From the UHGV virus genome UHGV-0165622: a stretch of 27,204 nt of DNA; one strand, given 5' to 3'. The position numbers were made by a program, and so were the translations under genes. Numbering within the stretch: the stretch's first letter is position 1; the number at the start of each line of letters is the position of its first letter. Under the pieces are notes generated by a model, which was not told the DNA's origin, did not search any database, and was given only the letters and a program-made list of their open reading frames with translations. The stretch comes from a virus. Shown piece by piece: positions 1-5,931 of this stretch.

Positions 1-75
1 GCTGTCTCCGTATGATACCGAAGAGATGCTTGAGGCTATGCGTATTTTTCTGGAAGAACAGGAAGGTGAGCAAAA

Positions 76-390
76 ATGACGATCACAAAACAACGTGTAG
101 AAGAAATCATATCCCGTATTGAAATGTATGGGCATGGTGCCGGGTATACCGCTGATGAGGTTTATGACCTTGCTGTACTGGCGCTGAATTTATCAAATAT
201 CGCAAAACTCAAGCGATACGAGCTTGATATGGATGGTTGTGACTCGTTCGGTCAGGATTGTGGCGCTGACATGACTGAAGATTCTGATGGCGATTATGTC
301 CTGTTTGATGACGTAGTTAAGTTGTTTGAGTTTGATACATTCGAAAGCCCAGTAAAGGAGGCAGCCAGTGAGCGGAAAAAGAATGACTAA
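76..390 (+). CDS. Hypothetical phage early-region protein
   Basis: 104-aa ORF; N-terminus MTITKQRVEE resembles the N-terminus of the ORF at 1413; no recognisable domain. Confidence 0.5.
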   Translation: MTITKQRVEEIISRIEMYGHGAGYTADEVYDLAVLALNLSNIAKLKRYELDMDGCDSFGQDCGADMTEDSDGDYVLFDDVVKLFEFDTFESPVKEAASERKKND

Positions 391-592
391 CAGAGAGCTT
401 GTCGATGCCGCGATTAAGCTTGCTGGTGATTTTTATTCAATGATGGGGTACACGCATCGCCCAGGCTTCAAATATTGGGAGTCTCCTCACCCGCAAGAGC
501 AACTGGTATTTCAAATGGCCTGCCGTGCTTTTGAGGTTATTCGCGGTTCTGATGTGATGGACGCCGTTGCCGACTTGGAGGATGAAGAGTGA
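368..592 (+). CDS. Hypothetical small phage protein
   Basis: 74-aa ORF with GTG start 7 nt after an AAGGAGG Shine-Dalgarno at 354-360; stop overlaps start of next gene. Confidence 0.45.
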   Translation: MSGKRMTNRELVDAAIKLAGDFYSMMGYTHRPGFKYWESPHPQEQLVFQMACRAFEVIRGSDVMDAVADLEDEE

Positions 593-1137
593 GCGAAATT
601 AATTATCAGGCACTGCGTGATGCGGCAGAAAAGGCAACGAAAGGGAGCTACATCGTAGGGCATACATCTGTTAACCAGCACGGCAATTTAACAGGAGTTT
701 TTGTTTGCCAAAAATGGAAAGGAGAACCCGGTGGCGTGATTGCAGAATGTCATGTTAACTGCCTGGTTGAAACAGATGCTCAGGCTTACGCAAACGCTGA
801 ATTTATTGCTGCCTTTAATCCAAATGTTGCGCTGGCACTACTGGATGAACGGGAAAGAAACCAGCAATACATAAAATCCCGCGACAAGGAGAACGAGGAT
901 ATTGCGCTAACGGTAGGGAAGCTGCGCGTTGAGCTTGAAGCAGAAAAACAGCGGGCAAAAGTTCTATTTATGGAAAATGCTCGGCTTAAGTCAGGCATAG
1001 CCGGTCTGATACACCTCGGTATTCGATATGCAGATGTTGAGGTCATGAAAATTGCTGGAGATGCCCAGCTTTCTACCCCATGCACTGACAGCATCATAAA
1101 CAGCATTGCAACAGGCATTCGCATCAAAGGAGAGTGA
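589..1137 (+). CDS. Ea22-like family protein
   Basis: 182 aa; N-terminal SEINYQALRDAAEKA and central coiled-coil region typical of lambdoid Ea22-like proteins; GTG start overlapping upstream stop. Confidence 0.7.
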   Translation: MSEINYQALRDAAEKATKGSYIVGHTSVNQHGNLTGVFVCQKWKGEPGGVIAECHVNCLVETDAQAYANAEFIAAFNPNVALALLDERERNQQYIKSRDKENEDIALTVGKLRVELEAEKQRAKVLFMENARLKSGIAGLIHLGIRYADVEVMKIAGDAQLSTPCTDSIINSIATGIRIKGE

Positions 1138-1138
1138 T

Positions 1139-1402
1139 ATGGCAACTTTAACAAAAAAAGAACGGGCATGGTTGAACGAATTACAGGACGTTCTTGATCG
1201 CTGCCCATCACCGAAAAAAATTGGTTTTTACACCATTGGCGATAAAAGCATTTACCTGTATGACCTACGCCGCATGGATGAAATCATGGAGGCTCTTGAT
1301 AATCGTTCGTCGATGGATTGGTGTGTTGCTGTCCATGATATGAATGCCGGATTTGATGAAAGGATTTTGTTCCCCTCATCAGTTGAAAGCACTGCGGGTT
1401 AA
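1139..1402 (+). CDS. Hypothetical phage protein
   Basis: 87-aa ORF (MATLTKKERAWLNELQD...) with AAAGGAGAG Shine-Dalgarno just upstream. Confidence 0.5.
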   Translation: MATLTKKERAWLNELQDVLDRCPSPKKIGFYTIGDKSIYLYDLRRMDEIMEALDNRSSMDWCVAVHDMNAGFDERILFPSSVESTAG

Positions 1403-1412
1403 GGAGTAACAC

Positions 1413-1556
1413 ATGACCACTATTACCAAAGAACGTATTGAATTGTTCATTAAATTTTCAGGAGGCGGTACTGTGAGTGAAATTAGCTATCAGGCTTCAA
1501 TTACCGCTGGCATTCGCATCAAAGGAGAGGAGCATGGAAATAAAACCAGAGGATGA
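1413..1556 (+). pseudogene. Mosaic remnant ORF combining Ea22-like N- and C-terminal fragments
   Basis: 47-aa ORF: N-terminus like ORF 76, then SEISYQAS (Ea22-like N-terminus), then ITAGIRIKGE (Ea22-like C-terminus); the 21-nt string ggcattcgcatcaaaggagag is duplicated at 1114-1134 and 1509-1529. Confidence 0.35.
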
Positions 1557-1890
1557 GTTAAGCAATATCGTTTTATTTCCGGTAAAAGAGGATGACCCTC
1601 GTAATCAGGTTAATTTTCTTTATGAGCCATCGGAAAGACCATATTGTCATCACGCCTCTGTCCGGGTTGACGAAAAAGAGCGTCAGGTCCGCTGTAAAAT
1701 CTGCGGTGCAGTTGTGGAGCCATTTGACTGGATGCTCTCTGTGGCGAAAAGAGAAACCAGACTGGCAGATGATGTAAGGCACTTGCGCCAGGAGGAGCGG
1801 GAAAGGCGAAAAAATATAGAAAAGCTAATTCAGATTGAGCGTAACGCGAAAGCGCGGATACGCAGGGCGACAAAATCCAGAACTGAATAA
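1534..1890 (+). CDS. Hypothetical protein, basic C-terminus
   Basis: 118-aa ORF starting MEIKPEDEL with AAAGGAGAGGAG Shine-Dalgarno; contains C/H-rich segment CHHASVRV...RCKICGAV. Confidence 0.5.
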   Translation: MEIKPEDELSNIVLFPVKEDDPRNQVNFLYEPSERPYCHHASVRVDEKERQVRCKICGAVVEPFDWMLSVAKRETRLADDVRHLRQEERERRKNIEKLIQIERNAKARIRRATKSRTE

Positions 1891-1983
1891 TTAAATTTAG
1901 CTCTGTTAAAAATTTAATCCTTAACCGGAGGGATTTCTGCACCCTCAGAACATCAGGAGGCCGCCCGAAAGGGCGGTAGTTAA

Positions 1984-2166
1984 ATGCGAAAGTTTAAAAT
2001 AATTATTGAAACGGGAATAGCCGGTGGAGATTTCGAGGATGAATTCGAAGTGGATGATGATGCGACGCCTGATGAAATACATGACGAAGCAAAAGATATT
2101 TTCTTTAACTACTGCAATTACTCACATCACGAAATAAAAGACGAAGAGGAAGAGCAAAATGGCTGA
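1984..2166 (+). CDS. Small acidic hypothetical protein
   Basis: 60-aa ORF, strongly acidic; preceded by a hairpin (gccgcccgaaagggcggt). Confidence 0.4.
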   Translation: MRKFKIIIETGIAGGDFEDEFEVDDDATPDEIHDEAKDIFFNYCNYSHHEIKDEEEEQNG

Positions 2167-2335
2167 TTTTGGTTCAACTAAATACAACGTCAGTTTTGAA
2201 GCATGGCATGAACTGTTAATGGACTATGCAGAGTTACGTGGTGGCAGTGCTGCTGATGCTGAAGCATGGCGTGATGATTATGAAGCAGGAAAAACTCCGG
2301 TCGAAGCATATTGTGATGAGTGGGGCGATGAATGA
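2159..2335 (+). CDS. Small hypothetical protein (not in ORF track)
   Basis: 58-aa ORF MADFGSTKYNVSFEAWHELL...; start overlaps previous stop and stop overlaps next start, consistent with a coupled early operon. Confidence 0.35.
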   Translation: MADFGSTKYNVSFEAWHELLMDYAELRGGSAADAEAWRDDYEAGKTPVEAYCDEWGDE

Positions 2336-2721
2336 GCGAGATTAATTATCAGGAAGGGCATGAAACGGCAGGGCAGGCAAAACCAGTTGCATGGCGATAT
2401 CGCTACGTGAAAAAAGACGTTACAGACTTTCAGGGGAAGCCGTGGGCTGGTGACTGGAAATATGTACCGACAAAAGAGGATTGTAACGACAGGCCGAACT
2501 ATGAAATTCAGGCCTTATTCATCGGCCCGCCAGTCCCGGTGACATCAGAAGGACTGGTTAAAGCCGTGCGCTTTTATGAACAGGTAAAGCGTGAGAATCC
2601 GCCAGTCGAAACAGGAGCATGGAAGGATGCTGTTGACTGGGTGCTCAGAGAGGCCTGCTGCGCTGCCATTCTGGGTAAGCCGACAATCCACCAGCATCCG
2701 GCAATCAGGTTAGCGAATTAA
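2332..2721 (+). CDS. Ea22-like family protein (short paralogue)
   Basis: 129 aa; N-terminus MSEINYQEGHETAG parallels the Ea22-like gene at 589. Confidence 0.6.
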   Translation: MSEINYQEGHETAGQAKPVAWRYRYVKKDVTDFQGKPWAGDWKYVPTKEDCNDRPNYEIQALFIGPPVPVTSEGLVKAVRFYEQVKRENPPVETGAWKDAVDWVLREACCAAILGKPTIHQHPAIRLAN

Positions 2722-2723
2722 CA

Positions 2724-2846
2724 ATGTGGGTTAAACGACTGGTCAGTCAACTGAAAAAAGCTCAGCCGGACTGCAAATTACCGGAGAAGGCGATGGATTA
2801 CCTGAAACGAAATGGACTGATAAGCGTGGAGGATGTTTTACGATGA
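2724..2846 (+). CDS. Small hypothetical protein (40 aa, not in ORF track)
   Basis: Short ORF MWVKRLVSQLKKAQPDCKLPEKAMDYLKRNGLISVEDVLR directly after the Ea22-like stop. Confidence 0.25.
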   Translation: MWVKRLVSQLKKAQPDCKLPEKAMDYLKRNGLISVEDVLR

Positions 2847-2927
2847 ATATTTAGACTAAAGAGTTTGTAACGCTATGTAAGTGATTTTTTCTGGTTTAGA
2901 TATTTATATGTCCGGCCAAATTGAGGT

Positions 2928-3146
2928 GTGTTTAAATGTTATTGCACATTGATTGTAGGGGGAATAATGAAAAACGCATTGCAGTTTTTGTTTGTTGCGT
3001 TCTGGTTGTTCGCATCATGTATGCCCATCATCTTCACAGCAAGGTATATGGAAAAAATTGATGTTTTGATATTAATGTTTGGACATATAAATGCCCTTTT
3101 TTTAGGGGTGTTCATGGCGGTCATGTGCATTGAATACTGGCGGTAA
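2928..3146 (+). CDS. Small hydrophobic (membrane) protein, AT-rich
   Basis: 72-aa ORF with two predicted hydrophobic helices in an AT-rich stretch; true start may be the internal Met (MKNALQF). Confidence 0.3.
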   Translation: MFKCYCTLIVGGIMKNALQFLFVAFWLFASCMPIIFTARYMEKIDVLILMFGHINALFLGVFMAVMCIEYWR

Positions 3147-3229
3147 ATACAGCGAACGCCATTGGTTTAGTTGGATATTTACTGTGCCGGACAAAAACGG
3201 TTTGCGGGGAAATCTTAGTTAAGTAGAAT

Positions 3230-3408
3230 GACTGCGGGTGCTTGAGGCTATCTGTCTCAGGCATGAACACCAAAAGGCAGATAGAGAAAAGCCCCAGTTA
3301 ACATTACGCGTCCTGCAAGACGCTTAACATTAATCTGAGGCCATATCTATGCGACACATAGAGATTAGCCTCTTACGGACCGAAAGGTCAAGGAGAAGCA
3401 GGCTATGA
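3230..3408 (+). promoter_or_regulatory. hok mRNA leader with mok-like upstream ORF (3349-3408) and probable antisense Sok target region
   Basis: 20-codon upstream ORF whose TGA overlaps the hok ATG (ctATGAag); inverted repeats in the leader (tatctgtctc / gcagatagag) fit hok/sok fold-back regulation. Confidence 0.4.
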
Positions 3409-3560
3409 AGCAGCAAAAGGCGATGTTAATCGCCCTGATCGTCATCTGTTTAACCGTCATAGTGACGGCACTGGTAACGAGGAAAGACCTCTGCGAGGTA
3501 CGAATCCGAACCGGCCAGACGGAGGTCGCTGTCTTCACAGCTTACGAACCTGAGGAGTAA
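3405..3560 (+). CDS. hokD: Hok/Gef family type I toxin (small membrane-depolarising peptide)
   Basis: 51 aa, MKQQKAMLIALIVICLTVIVTALVTRKDLCEVRIRTGQTEVAVFTAYEPEE; matches the Hok/Gef signature and is closest to HokD/RelF and HokC from memory; below the 60-aa cutoff of the ORF track. Confidence 0.85.
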   Translation: MKQQKAMLIALIVICLTVIVTALVTRKDLCEVRIRTGQTEVAVFTAYEPEE

Positions 3561-3628: not shown

Positions 3629-3650
3629 AACCCGCTTCGGCGGGTTTTTG
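3629..3650 (+). terminator. Rho-independent terminator after hok
   Basis: Hairpin cccgc-ttcg-gcggg followed by a T5 run. Confidence 0.7.
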
Positions 3651-3661
3651 CATTAGTCTGG

Positions 3662-3690
3662 TTGACAAAAATAGAAAAATGCGAAAATAT
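3662..3690 (+). promoter_or_regulatory. Putative sigma70 promoter for the 3726-5460 cassette
   Basis: Perfect -35 TTGACA at 3662-3667, 17-nt spacer, weak -10-like AAATAT; AT-rich context. Confidence 0.3.
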
Positions 3691-3725
3691 GTGGTTTACG
3701 AATTCTAAAAAAAGCGAAACTTGAA

Positions 3726-4376
3726 ATGAATGAAAATCAGTTAGCTCCTTGTTGGGAATTTCAACCTTATCTTGCTGAAAACTATGTTCGCCACTTGTTG
3801 GCGGAGATCGCTAACGTACTTGAGCAGCTGTACTATCATAAGCACGCATTAGACAGCAACTGGTCTGAAGGTGTAAGGGCTTATGATTGGGTCAGAAATC
3901 ATCTTATTCAAAATGAAGATGCAATTCCTGGCCTTGAGATGATTTCCAAGGGGTTGGACTATGTAGTTGCTTTAAATAAAGTTCCGCTACAATTTACCAA
4001 AGATTGCATTAATAACCCCAAAAAGAAACATCGTCTGCGTCGAAATAAAGTAGAGTATGAGCAGCTCTCATTGTTTGGTGATGTTGAGGCTGAGCAAGAT
4101 ATTACATGGCGAGTCATAGCTGAGCCTTTTTTATCCGAAGAGGGCGATGGTGAATTAGAGTCCACACTGCCTCGTTGGGAGGTAGCTCTTGTTGGATTTA
4201 ATACTTATGGTGCTCAGATTAGTATAGTTTCTCATCAATCTACAGCATCGATGCCGCTTATGCCTCTTGATTATAACACACTCCCTGACGAAGCGGAGAT
4301 TAATAAGGTGCCTCTTCGTCGGCGTACGAAGGATAAAGATTTGGATGTGAGCAGTGATGGAACATCAGGTGAATAA
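3726..4376 (+). CDS. Unknown 216-aa protein, upstream partner of the HTH/Zn-peptidase gene (candidate toxin or effector)
   Basis: ORF with no motif I recognise; low-GC codon usage; 3' end overlaps the downstream gene by about 20 nt. Confidence 0.7.
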   Translation: MNENQLAPCWEFQPYLAENYVRHLLAEIANVLEQLYYHKHALDSNWSEGVRAYDWVRNHLIQNEDAIPGLEMISKGLDYVVALNKVPLQFTKDCINNPKKKHRLRRNKVEYEQLSLFGDVEAEQDITWRVIAEPFLSEEGDGELESTLPRWEVALVGFNTYGAQISIVSHQSTASMPLMPLDYNTLPDEAEINKVPLRRRTKDKDLDVSSDGTSGE

Positions 4377-5460
4377 CTTCACTGAGTATCGGGGTGATAA
4401 GCTCAAACTAGCGAGAATGGCTGTTGGGCTTTCTTGTGAAGAGTTAGCCGAAAAAATTGGCAAGACAAAGCAATTCGTTAGCAAACTGGAGAAGGGGTGC
4501 AGGCCATCGGAGCAATGTCTTGAGTTAATATCTTCAGCGCTTATGATTAAGTCCAGTTTTCTTTTTACTGAACGAAAATACGCTCTGGAAAGTGATGTCT
4601 GCCATTTTCGGAGTAAGAAGTCCAGGACTCAAACGCTGACTAATAGTGTATTGGCCAGGGCTGAGATTCTTAATATTATAATTTCTGCTGTTGAAGGTGA
4701 AATCGAATTTCCTGACGTTAACATACCGGAGCACCCAGGGGCTGAATTACTTACTCCGAATGATATTGAGCGAGTGGCAGAAGATTGTCGCCGTGCCTGG
4801 AATTTAGGTCTTGGCCCTATATCATCAATGGTTAAATTGGCGGAGAGTTTAGGGGTAATCGTTGCGCATGTTACGGGAGTCGATGATCGTGTTGATGCTT
4901 TTACTGTTCACAATAACAGGCCTGTTATCATCAGGAACAATGTTAAAAAAAGCATATGTAGATTTCGCTCTGATTTAGGTCATGAATTAGGGCATTTAGT
5001 AATGCATGAGGGCATAACGACAGGTGATAAACTTACGGAATCACAAGCCGATCACTTTTCGAGCGCCTTATTAGTTCCCAGGTTATCTTTCATTAAAGAA
5101 TTTCCACGAATACGAGGTAAGCAATTCGACTGGAATGCTCTGGTTGAATTTAAACTTAGATGGAAAATCAGCCTTAAAATGTGTATTTATCGAGCCAGCG
5201 CATTAGGCTTATTGACCCAGGAACAGGCAAGAACTGGCTATATGCATCTTAATTCCAGAGGGTATACGAGAGTTGAACCTGGTGATGAACTTTTGCGCCC
5301 TGAAGAACCCGGCATGCTGGCCGAGGCGATTGAAATGCTGGATGATGCAACCTGGCTAAGAATTCTTATGAAAACTGGCTTGAGCCAAGATTTAATTCGT
5401 GAGTTGTTCTCCATCAACAGACCTATTACAAATCCAAGAAATATTTTCCAGATTGTTTGA
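4354..5460 (+). CDS. HTH_XRE plus ImmA/IrrE-family (COG2856, M78-like) zinc metallopeptidase fusion protein
   Basis: N-terminal XRE helix-turn-helix (LSCEELAEKIGKTKQFVSKLEKGCRPS); HEXXH zinc motif HELGH at about 4979-4993 with downstream Glu; 368 aa; GTG/ATG start overlapping the upstream gene. Confidence 0.85.
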   Translation: MMEHQVNNFTEYRGDKLKLARMAVGLSCEELAEKIGKTKQFVSKLEKGCRPSEQCLELISSALMIKSSFLFTERKYALESDVCHFRSKKSRTQTLTNSVLARAEILNIIISAVEGEIEFPDVNIPEHPGAELLTPNDIERVAEDCRRAWNLGLGPISSMVKLAESLGVIVAHVTGVDDRVDAFTVHNNRPVIIRNNVKKSICRFRSDLGHELGHLVMHEGITTGDKLTESQADHFSSALLVPRLSFIKEFPRIRGKQFDWNALVEFKLRWKISLKMCIYRASALGLLTQEQARTGYMHLNSRGYTRVEPGDELLRPEEPGMLAEAIEMLDDATWLRILMKTGLSQDLIRELFSINRPITNPRNIFQIV

Positions 5461-5464
5461 GTAT

Positions 5465-5486
5465 ACCCGCTTCGGCGGGTTTTTTG
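5465..5486 (+). terminator. Rho-independent terminator after the cassette
   Basis: Same hairpin as at 3629-3650 (acccgcttcggcggg) followed by a T6 run. Confidence 0.7.
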
Positions 5487-5646
5487 TTTTTATTTTCAAC
5501 GTGTTTGAAGTTTTGGACGGTGCCAGAATAGAATCAAAAATACTTAAGTAGCGCGCAGGGATAAGAGGGATGGTCCCTTAAAGGGGAGAGCTAATTATCC
5601 GGAAGGATTCTGATGATGAACATCGAAGAACTGCGTAAAATTTTTT

Positions 5647-5865
5647 GTGAAGATGGCCTTCTATGCTGTGTGCGTTGAAAATGGAAATCTTGTTAGTCAT
5701 TACCGCATTATGTGTTTGCGAAAGAATGGGGCTGCGTTAATTAATTTTGTGGATGCTCGGGTCACGGACGGATTTATCTTGCGCGACGGTGAGTTTGTCA
5801 CTTCATTACAGGTATTGAAAGAGATCGGAATAAAAGCAGGCTTTTCAGCTTTTGCAGAAGAATAA
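5647..5865 (+). CDS. Rem-like small prophage protein (possibly frameshifted at its N-terminus)
   Basis: 72-aa ORF; an upstream ATG at 5613 in another frame (MMNIEELRKIF...) would join in-frame if the T6 run at 5640-5646 were T5, giving an 83-aa product. Confidence 0.5.
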   Translation: MKMAFYAVCVENGNLVSHYRIMCLRKNGAALINFVDARVTDGFILRDGEFVTSLQVLKEIGIKAGFSAFAEE

Positions 5866-5931
5866 ACTCATCTACAATCTTGCGCGGGGCTGAACTCCCG
5901 CTGAGTAACACCGTGCCACCGGAGAAAACCG

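Follow-up and report, generated by a model that had tools for sequence, protein, structure and literature searches.

As PMC3029335 recounts, short conserved sequences at gene boundaries were proposed as recombination sites of lambdoid phages by Clark, Inwood, Cloutier & Dhillon (2001), in work on HK620, and by Susskind & Botstein (1978), in the modular theory. The ea22 genes of Stx phages are mosaic and join a common N-terminal and coiled-coil part to unrelated C-terminal domains (PMC10834534). The Red system efficiently recombines DNA that is diverged by 22% (PMC2327257), and in about half of lambdoid mosaics homologous recombination has left traces at the flanks (PMC3945230). The epsilon34 genome paper makes no mention of ead/ea22 mosaics.

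We analysed a stretch of 27,204 nt from the UHGV virus genome UHGV-0165622 (hereafter the window), the early part of which resembles these systems. Positions 1–2900 probably form a string of co-directional, tightly coupled small accessory genes within the nin-like portion of an E. coli lambdoid prophage. As far as the lambdoid boundary sequences are described in PMC3029335, the window shares with them conserved gene borders, unrelated flanks and mosaic joints, of the kind proposed as sites at which recombination reassorts modules, and does not differ from them in principle; one boundary, a 21-mer at the 3′end of Ea22 followed by TGA-n-ATG, is quantified here. The Ea22 gene at 589–1137 has the N-terminal segment, the Ead_Ea22 coiled-coil signature and the swappable C-terminal domain of lambda ea22 and its Stx variants, and its terminal DNA matches that of lambda ea22 at both the 5′ and the 3′ end. 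Unlike lambda ea22, which is located between exo and xis, it lies in the nin-like region of the rightward operon beside replication and Q genes, and the window adds a relic of 27 Ea22 codons as well as a hybrid gene in which only about the first 16 codons are from Ea22. As in homeologous recombination by Red or Rad52-like proteins, blocks of 100% identity are edged by partial similarity ('HR traces') and exchange takes place between phages and (defective) prophages (PMC2327257; PMC3945230), but the arms in the window can be as short as 21–32 nt. Because the window contains no recombinase gene, we infer the acting enzyme. Integron cassettes are likewise small promoterless genes that are swapped as units between short conserved junctions within one operon; however, the window lacks an integrase, an attC-like imperfect inverted repeat and a site-specific junction, and the resemblance is functional only.

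Gene content of the cluster

Within the nin-like region, the cluster is followed on the same strand by hok/sok, DUF968, RusA and a Q-like antiterminator; it is not situated between the recombination genes and xis/int of a leftward operon and does not belong to the lambda exo–xis interval (b-region). In the closest prophage it comes after the replication genes and DUF977, and the same modules occupy exo–xis-type positions in ArgO145, PhiR49_2 and VSe13. No place in 50,697 phage records or in 5,426 complete E. coli genomes covered the whole 1–2900 arrangement to 80% or more. An Rfam scan revealed no known RNA element in positions 1–3200, the sole match being sok at 3236–3407, and internal promoters or terminators that could delimit modules were no more frequent in positions 1–3200 than expected by chance. 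None of ten ORFs received an NCBIfam name, and PADLOC gave no defence match for the Ea22 gene or the 357-nt gene described below.

All genes of the cluster are encoded on the plus strand. The first, at 76–390 (104 aa; phrog_3126, function unknown), overlaps the stop codon of the upstream ORF as ATGA and shows 82% DNA identity to the PhiR49_2 gene upstream of Ea22. It is followed by an ORF of 69 aa at 383–592 (74 aa if GTG 368 is the start), which matches only the C-terminal part of phrog_4132 and whose TGA overlaps the GTG of Ea22 as GTGA; in several relatives homology begins at 354–356. Downstream of Ea22, the ORF at 1139–1402 (87 aa; phrog_1714, function unknown) has at least four different preceding genes among relatives. 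The 357-nt gene at 1534–1890 (118 aa; phrog_1621, with a weak zinc-ribbon signal) is usually preceded in relatives by a full-length Ea22. A portable intergenic spacer at 1891–1983, containing the hairpin CCGCCC-GAAA-GGGCGG at 1961–1976, precedes a DUF4014 gene in other phages. In the window it precedes a DUF7167 gene at 1984–2166 (60 aa; E = 9.6e-14) and an ORF of 58 aa at 2159–2335, which matches the C-terminal part of phrog_519 and whose stop codon overlaps the next start as ATGA.

The Ea22 gene, its repeated ends and two hybrid reading frames

ORF 589–1137 encodes a complete Ead/Ea22-like protein of 182 aa that matches Pfam PF13935 over profile positions 1–139 of 139 (E = 4.3e-36, 125 bits against a cut-off of 27), as well as 16 PHROG families. 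It is the only true member of the Ea22 family in the cluster. A conserved N-terminal and coiled-coil part (589 to about 948) is followed by a variable C-terminal domain (about 949–1113) and a conserved tail (1114–1134), and positions 588–948 are 95% identical to ArgO145 gp18.

Both ends of this gene recur in the window. The 5′ motif TGAGCGAAATTAATTATCAGG, which corresponds to the 5′end of lambda ea22 (GTGAGCGAAATTAACTCTCAGGCACTGCGTGA), occurs without mismatch at 590–610, with three mismatches at 1474–1494 and with one at 2333–2353, and nowhere else in the 27.2 kb; 100 dinucleotide-preserving shuffles gave no match. These positions place the start codons at GTG 589, GTG 1473 and ATG 2332. A preliminary description had reported three Ea22-like 5′ends at 589, 1467 and 2332, of which the first and last are confirmed and the second is corrected to 1473, since SEISYQ is encoded at 1476–1493 and the earlier coordinate is 6–9 nt too low. 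The second copy (GTG-SEISYQA) spans 1473–1497, and the third spans 2327–2380 and is 78% identical to 584–637. Some other phages carry genuine Ea22 genes in the slot of the third copy, and homology to these stops at 2352–2380. As the preliminary description had also stated, the Ea22-like 3′end is present twice: GGCATTCGCATCAAAGGAGAG is found exactly at 1114–1134 and 1509–1529, with no further match in the window allowing up to three mismatches and none in the shuffles, and it matches the 3′end of lambda ea22, GCTGGCATTCGCATCAAAGGAGAGTGA. Across positions 1–3300 the longest exact direct repeat is 21 nt, compared with a maximum of 14 in 100 shuffles, and the best 35-nt window contains 28 matches, compared with a shuffle maximum of 26. 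The shared segments are identical or nearly so at the DNA level and do not represent a mere peptide motif.

The 3′ boundary sequence at 1114–1141 consists of the 21-mer and the linker TGAtATG, and holds the Shine–Dalgarno sequence (SD) and the start codon of the next gene. The 168 related loci contain 142 exact copies of the 21-mer, preceded by at least 10 classes of upstream sequence that share less than 70% identity and encode unrelated C-terminal domains, and followed by at least 15 downstream classes; at this gene border a short sequence has been conserved between flanks that are, on either side, unrelated among phages. In these loci the 21-mer shows almost no synonymous variation, and its few variants are mostly nonsynonymous. 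Inspection of the repeat listing revealed no inverted repeat or structure at the motif. The 21-mer and linker are common to lambda, Stx phages, P22-like phages and phage-plasmid-like replicons of ~110 kb. Loci with the Ea22 motif can be drawn from roughly 3,700 E. coli genomes that gave hits.

The second copies of both ends lie within an ORF of 47 aa at 1413–1556, annotated as a hypothetical protein in RefSeq (WP_000207966.1 in E. coli ATCC 25922), which has its own PHROG family (phrog_19884) and does not match PF13935. Sequence homology divides it into four pieces. Piece 1 (1403–1454) comprises the SD and first 14 codons of an 'EaA'/DUF550-type gene; 689R5 'EaA' matches it without mismatch within an enclosing block (1126–1454) of 98.5% identity, and homology to the VSe13 DUF550 gene, at its 5′end, likewise runs through 1454. 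Piece 2 (1453–1476) stems from a DUF977 ('LygF') gene, of which it holds the final 24 nt with the TGA at 1474–1476; the sequence it has in common with piece 1 at their joint is just 2 nt long (AA, 1453–1454). Piece 3 is the second Ea22 5′end and piece 4 (1498–1533, encoding SITAGIRIKGE) the second Ea22 3′end. Since piece 4 lacks a stop codon, the frame extends over the first 23 nt of the next gene. Full-length Ea22 in ArgO145 (gp18) and in L011 runs on into the 357-nt gene in the same way, and full-length Ea22 genes with this 23-nt overlap end in GIRIKGEEHGNKTRG and a stop. The view that the 47-aa ORF contains an internally deleted Ea22 is upheld, with ~8 N-terminal and ~11 C-terminal codons fused in frame, and the fragments recognised earlier are indeed from Ea22; the DUF977-derived piece had been missed. 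An N-terminus like that of ORF 76, as had been suggested, is rejected in favour of the perfectly matching EaA/DUF550-type 5′end. As a donor, ORF 76 agrees by eye at ~23 of 33 nt (~70%) and needs a codon gap, and a 13-nt repeat match (D19) to it is out of register relative to the two ATGs.

The chimera did not arise recently in this genome, contrary to the earlier reading: the same junction is present in 73 of 5,426 complete E. coli genomes, in which the junction probe is covered in full, and in 16 IMG/VR loci, and the probe (88 nt) is 100% identical in prophages of the E. coli ATCC 25922 type. The Ea22 relic situated behind an intact DUF977 gene is still more widespread than the chimera junction, and is older than it. 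Positions 1453–2605 are 97% identical to 640R1. A full-length parent Ea22 beginning SEISYQAS was not found in the 168 fetched loci, allowing up to three mismatches. Starting from an ancestor with the order DUF977–Ea22–357-nt gene, the body of Ea22 would have been deleted, leaving ~8 and ~11 codons in frame, and a later join at 2-nt microhomology may have fused the first 14 codons of an EaA-type gene to the final 24 nt of DUF977, giving the 47-aa ORF. Variants of the relic (by eye, ~6 nonsynonymous changes and one synonymous change) are consistent with a lack of selection on the peptide. The ORF is most likely a translated by-product, presumably functionless, that keeps ribosome traffic through the operon continuous.

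The third Ea22 5′end opens a different kind of hybrid. ORFs 2332–2721 (129 aa) and 2724–2846 (40 aa) are one gene of 171 aa at 2332–2846 (phrog_660) that is split by a 1-nt deletion at 2677 (AAA to AA). ORF 2332–2721 does not match PF13935, and its DNA similarity to Ea22 is confined to 2327–2380, so that the third Ea22-like ORF of the preliminary description retains its Ea22 5′end but is not Ea22 beyond the first ~48 nt (~16 codons). The 'ACLAME 31' gene, which follows EaA in other phages, has a 3′end with 86% identity to positions 2748–2846.

Mosaic joints and identity tracts in related loci

Points at which homology to related loci starts or stops were compared with the conserved ends. The loci were picked for carrying Ea22 or the 357-nt gene and many share ancestry, and the enrichment of breakpoints is descriptive rather than a clean statistical test. 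In the 168 loci, breakpoints cluster at the Ea22 start codon, at the end of the coiled coil and at the stop/start linker. Homology starts at 584–597, at or a few bases from the Ea22 start codon, behind about ten different upstream sequences. It ends at 941–953, at the border between the coiled coil and the C-terminal domain (~948), with at least five different continuations. At the 3′end of ORF 589–1137 breakpoints fall at 1129–1163, and those at 1137–1143, just past the next ATG, lead into at least eight downstream genes. Further starts are found at 1505–1507. Mosaic joints coincide with conserved sequence in this homology-selected set of non-independent loci, and the proposal of modular shuffling by recombination is borne out in that the shared segments coincide with homology start and stop points in about 170 related loci.

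Long tracts of identity with different partners adjoin one another along the cluster. Positions 1–955 are identical to plasmid pR9-658-1, 887–1143 to 11 IMG/VR loci, 1112–1432 to CMS-2020a except for one mismatch, and 1363–3300 to the ATCC 25922 type except for one mismatch. These tracts overlap in shared stretches of 32–70 nt, a pattern consistent with that expected from homologous crossovers. Adjacent tracts of 100% identity with different partners show that some exchange was recent, as previously claimed, but this does not extend to the 47-aa chimera.

Origin of the gene order and its significance

We consider it likely that the gene order was built by repeated exchange with temperate phages, channelled through short conserved gene ends. 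One homology arm would be the 5′ segment of Ea22, from the start codon to about codon 120, and the other the 21–24-nt Ea22 3′ tail fused to the SD/stop/start linker (AAAGGAGAG-TGA-n-ATG), both serving general or phage-encoded (Red/RecT/Erf-type) recombination. With the conserved ends acting as homology arms, Ea22 C-terminal domains and neighbouring genes would be swapped as cassettes, and occasional illegitimate joins would add to the exchange and leave relics. That the conserved ends are a substrate for homologous recombination is consistent with the 32–70-nt tract overlaps. Recombineering efficiency drops steeply below ~30 nt, and a tail of 21–24 nt is short for efficient Red or RecA recombination, which counts against this explanation. 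Moreover, since the tail carries an SD and a stop/start coupling signal, its conservation may be partly functional and not a recombination footprint. Illegitimate recombination is demonstrably part of the history, given the 2-nt EaA/DUF977 join and an Ea22 deletion without an identified parent.

A rival explanation is the Hendrix model, in which joints are random and illegitimate, survivors at gene borders are selected, and the Ea22 ends would be kept by function (as an N-terminal peptide, a C-terminal GIRIKGE tail and an SD/stop–start coupling signal) rather than as recombination substrates. Besides the 2-nt junction, it accommodates the homology of the ATCC 25922 type, which begins precisely with the TGA that follows an unrelated DUF4014 gene lacking an Ea22 tail, the presence of the downstream ribosome-binding site and start codon in the linker, and the fact that most mosaic boundaries have no conserved sequences (PMC3029335). 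We nevertheless regard it as rather unlikely for this locus, because in at least 10 unrelated C-terminal-domain contexts the 21-mer has kept its synonymous sites unchanged and varies mostly at nonsynonymous ones, unlike what peptide-level selection on old, independent lineages would leave, and because tracts of perfect identity overlap in common zones, as expected of homologous crossovers. An origin within the genome, by tandem duplication of one Ea22 in a prophage followed by divergence and deletion, would explain why 1.8 kb of one strand contains the copies as direct repeats. Sequence comparison effectively refutes it: each copy is far closer to other phages (640R1, ArgO145 gp18) than to the other copies in the window, the sequences between the copies are mutually unrelated, and the same modules are found elsewhere in other orders and genome regions.

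The extreme nucleotide-level conservation of the 21-mer could instead suggest that the ends are targeted by a specific nuclease or recombinase, for example an HNH endonuclease, in an integron-like or homing-like manner. HNH endonuclease genes do lie beside Ea22-like genes in VSe13, and are annotated under matches in several E. coli prophages, and one belongs to the same gene cluster of ArgO145, two genes downstream of gp13. However, positions 1–3300 contain no HNH or integrase gene, breakpoints spread over tens of nucleotides and also fall inside shared genes, and the motif has no associated inverted repeat or structure, making dedicated exchange very unlikely. It also seems improbable that selection has made the Ea22 3′ tail and linker (GCTGGCATTCGCATCAAAGGAGAG-TGA-n-ATG), along with the Ea22 5′ segment, into a portable 'cassette junction' on which neighbouring HNH nucleases might act or which phage single-strand annealing proteins might favour. 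If this were true, lambdoid and P22-like phages and phage-plasmids of ~110 kb would share a common, integron-like market of accessory genes, and nucleotide invariance across unrelated flanks would reflect selection for exchangeability.

Returning to exchange through short conserved ends, the phenomenon is the already known boundary-sequence mosaicism of lambdoid phages: the repeated ends are known lambda-like swap sequences, and the locus is a clear but ordinary case. It has consequences for annotation, where a few initial residues are no reliable basis for an 'Ea22-like' label (only one candidate of the three belongs to the family), the 47-aa 'hypothetical protein' annotated across many E. 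coli genomes represents a recombination scar of four pieces, and ORFs 2332–2721 and 2724–2846 are a single broken gene. The locus opens no new question but provides a clean and quantifiable example of boundary-sequence mosaicism, and since one 21-nt junction links the lambda, Stx, P22-like and phage-plasmid pools, it may serve as a test bed for accessory gene exchange driven by short homology.

Ea22 ends and their gene neighbourhood

The first 2900 nt of the window contain ten densely packed ORFs, all on the + strand, in which the stop and start codons of neighbours overlap or almost touch: ATGA at 76, GTGA at 589, the linker TGAtATG at 1135-1141, a 23-nt ORF overlap at 1534-1556 and ATGA at 2332. 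In 1-3200, sites resembling promoters or terminators do not exceed the number expected by chance, and an Rfam scan gave sok (3236-3407) as its sole match. The cluster is followed on the same strand by hok/sok, a DUF968 gene, RusA and a Q-like antiterminator (DUF1133/antitermQ), and replication genes and a DUF977 gene precede the cluster in the closest prophages. Because of these downstream genes and this gene order, the cluster is assigned to a lambdoid E. coli prophage's rightward early operon, within the nin-like part; a lambda-type exo-xis position was rejected on account of the neighbours on its two sides. The same modules are found at exo-xis-type positions in phages ArgO145, PhiR49_2 and the P22-like VSe13.

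Beyond the cluster, the hok/sok type I toxin-antitoxin module (3236-3560; Rfam sok E = 3e-24, Pfam HOK_GEF E = 1.2e-23) has an intrinsic terminator on its 3′ side (3629-3646). The window also has a 2.27-kb insertion at 3649-5914, absent from the ATCC 25922-type prophage and bracketed by ACCCGCTTCGGCGGGTTTTT, a terminator hairpin present twice (~3629-3650 and ~5466-5487). Its ORFs 3726-4376 (PADLOC RmrT, E = 4.6e-25) and 4354-5460 (RmrA, E = 6e-105; Pfam HTH_3 and Peptidase_M78) are a predicted Rosmer-type toxin-antitoxin/anti-phage defence pair.

There are three copies of the Ea22-type 5′ motif, at 590-610 (no mismatches), 1474-1494 (three) and 2333-2353 (one), and an exact 21-mer, GGCATTCGCATCAAAGGAGAG, occurs twice, at 1114-1134 and 1509-1529. 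Alignment with phage lambda identified the two motifs as the genuine termini of ea22. No further copies of either were detected in the 27-kb window, neither occurred in 100 shuffles, and the longest exact repeat in 1-3300 is 21 nt, compared with 14 nt in shuffles. The repeated Ea22-like ends noted in the preliminary description are therefore present at the DNA level; the middle 5′ end exists as described but lies slightly off the position of 1467 assigned to it, with a GTG start at 1473 and SEISYQ encoded by 1476-1493. Two signals of the next gene lie within the tail of the 21-mer region, its Shine-Dalgarno sequence and its stop/start linker.

ORF 589-1137 is a bona fide member of the Ead/Ea22 family (Pfam, E = 4.3e-36). 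The same status had been suggested for ORF 2332-2721 (129 aa) and is not upheld: its Ea22 likeness is confined to 2327-2380, a Pfam search gave no match, and together with ORF 2724-2846 (40 aa) it makes up a single 171-aa gene (phrog_660) that a 1-nt deletion at 2677 (AAA to AA) has broken in two. More than 30 IMG/VR relatives lack the deletion, and the ATCC 25922 lineage has it too. In other phages this slot is occupied by a genuine Ea22, and the C-terminal module of the split gene shows 86% identity to the 3′ end of 'ACLAME 31', a gene that elsewhere is situated after the small gene EaA. ORFs 383-592 and 2159-2335 match just the C-terminal parts of longer PHROG families (positions 110-178 of 179 in phrog_4132 and 76-137 of 143 in phrog_519, respectively) and may be further truncated or recombined modules.

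Homology endpoints and recent exchange

We aligned 160 IMG/VR loci encoding relatives of the 357-nt gene (ORF 1534-1890) or of the Ea22 protein, together with ten loci from annotated records (phages, lambda among them, as well as one E. coli chromosome and one plasmid), to 1-3300 and sorted them into 62 distinct architectures. Homology endpoints cluster at few positions. Homology starts at 584-597, no more than a few bases from the start codon and preceded by about ten different upstream sequences, and ends at 941-953, the border between coiled coil and C-terminal domain, with at least five continuations. Further ends fall at 1129-1163, mostly at 1137-1143 directly past the next ATG, with at least eight different downstream genes, and starts at 1111-1135, where at least four different genes lie 5′ of the 264-nt gene (ORF 1139-1402). 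Homology both starts and ends at 1453/1454, where EaA and DUF977 sequence join inside the 47-aa chimera, starts at 1505-1507, where the Ea22 3′ end of the chimera's relic begins, and, for the genuine Ea22 genes in the slot of ORF 2332, ends at 2352-2380, just inside that ORF. The intergenic spacer at 1883-1983, which contains the hairpin CCGCCC-GAAA-GGGCGG (1961-1976), is a portable junction too: it lies 5′ of a DUF7167 gene in the window and, in the prophage of ATCC 25922 (common part limited to 1953-1978) and in ArgO145 (1883-1978), 5′ of a DUF4014 gene.

The exact 21-mer occurs 142 times over all compared loci, flanked by at least ten unrelated upstream and at least 15 downstream classes. 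Its synonymous variation is nearly nil and its few variants are mainly nonsynonymous. An anciently conserved peptide is at odds with this pattern, which fits either the recombinational spread of a DNA segment or selection acting on its nucleotide sequence.

Recent exchange is visible as four tracts with four different partners: 1-955 (100% identity to the 110.9-kb E. coli plasmid pR9-658-1), 887-1143 (identical in 11 IMG/VR loci), 1112-1432 (one base different from the 109-kb 'phage CMS-2020a') and 1363-3300 (one base different, at 2125, from ATCC 25922-type prophages). Successive tracts share 69, 32 and 70 nt, as would be expected of homologous crossovers. The whole arrangement was found in no phage record and in none of the 5,426 complete E. 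coli genomes searched. The left part of the cluster (1-955 and 1112-1432; loci L166 and L167) is identical or nearly so to DNA of the two ~110-kb E. coli replicons, pR9-658-1 and 'phage CMS-2020a', and therefore Ea22-type modules circulate among lambdoid prophages, P22-like phages and phage-plasmid-like elements. In pR9-658-1, ISEcp1-blaCTX-M-15 lies ~1 kb from the matching DNA.

Composition and age of the 47-aa ORF

Judged by its matches, the 47-aa ORF (1413-1556) is a chimera of four pieces. Positions 1403-1454 match the start of the phage 689R5 gene 'EaA' (Shine-Dalgarno sequence and 14 codons) without mismatch, within a block (1126-1454) that is 98.5% identical, and a VSe13 DUF550 gene is homologous over the same stretch up to 1454. 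Next, at 1453-1476, come the final 24 nt of a DUF977/'LygF' gene with its TGA; in phage 640R1 and ~30 IMG/VR loci an intact DUF977 gene precedes exactly the same Ea22 relic. This relic comprises ~8 N-terminal codons from GTG 1473 fused in frame to ~11 C-terminal codons (SITAGIRIKGE; SIATGIRIKGE in ORF 589-1137), and bears out the internally deleted Ea22 recognised earlier. The frame continues 23 nt into the 357-nt gene, a run-on shared with the full-length Ea22 genes of ArgO145 (gp18) and locus L011, terminating GIRIKGEEHGNKTRG*. Relic variants read off the sequences carry ~6 nonsynonymous changes to one synonymous, which suggests a peptide without selection.

ORF 76, proposed as donor of the N-terminus, is displaced by EaA; its faint likeness probably reflects the similar first codons of many genes downstream of the tail (MTTIT, MTTMT, MATLT, MATFT). 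Nor is the chimera recent, as had been supposed: its complete junction is present in 73 of the 5,426 E. coli genomes, ATCC 25922 and ST131 strains among them, and in 16 IMG/VR loci, and it forms a PHROG family by itself. Commoner still is the relic linked to DUF977, which has diverged variants, so both are old relative to this genome. In ATCC 25922 (locus L001), a DUF977 pseudogene with an internal stop (2012-2434) and, ~0.9 kb downstream, the separate 24-nt remnant in the chimera (3319-3342) mean that the DUF977 3′ end is there twice, in different sequence versions.

Probable recombination at shared boundaries

The best-supported reading is a known mechanism, in which short boundary sequences and shared gene segments are used for recombination. 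Conserved boundaries and segments would supply the homology arms on which general or phage-encoded recombination acts, and selection for an intact operon would sieve the rarer illegitimate joins. The boundary-sequence proposal is that of Susskind & Botstein (1978) and Clark et al. (2001), both cited through PMC3029335; Red recombines diverged DNA efficiently (PMC2327257), and about half of lambdoid mosaics carry traces of homologous recombination (PMC3945230). In the ea22 mosaic the N-terminal/coiled-coil part is common and the C-terminal domains are unrelated (PMC10834534). The main rival, less probable but credible, is purely illegitimate recombination with selection, the Ea22 ends being conserved for function; it certainly explains the EaA/DUF977 join, an illegitimate event because the two genes share just AA (1453-1454). 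Intragenomic duplication as the origin of the Ea22 copies is excluded, every copy having much closer relatives outside the window, and a dedicated nuclease-driven cassette system, for which the HNH genes adjoining Ea22 in some relatives are the sole basis, is a low-probability speculation.

The shuffling described earlier is right as regards recombinational mosaicism and the internally deleted Ea22, and wrong as regards the N-terminal donor, the recency of the chimera and the Ea22 status of the third ORF. Phenomenon and sequences alike are known and already in the databases; the value of the cluster lies in annotation clean-up and in providing a tidy worked example.
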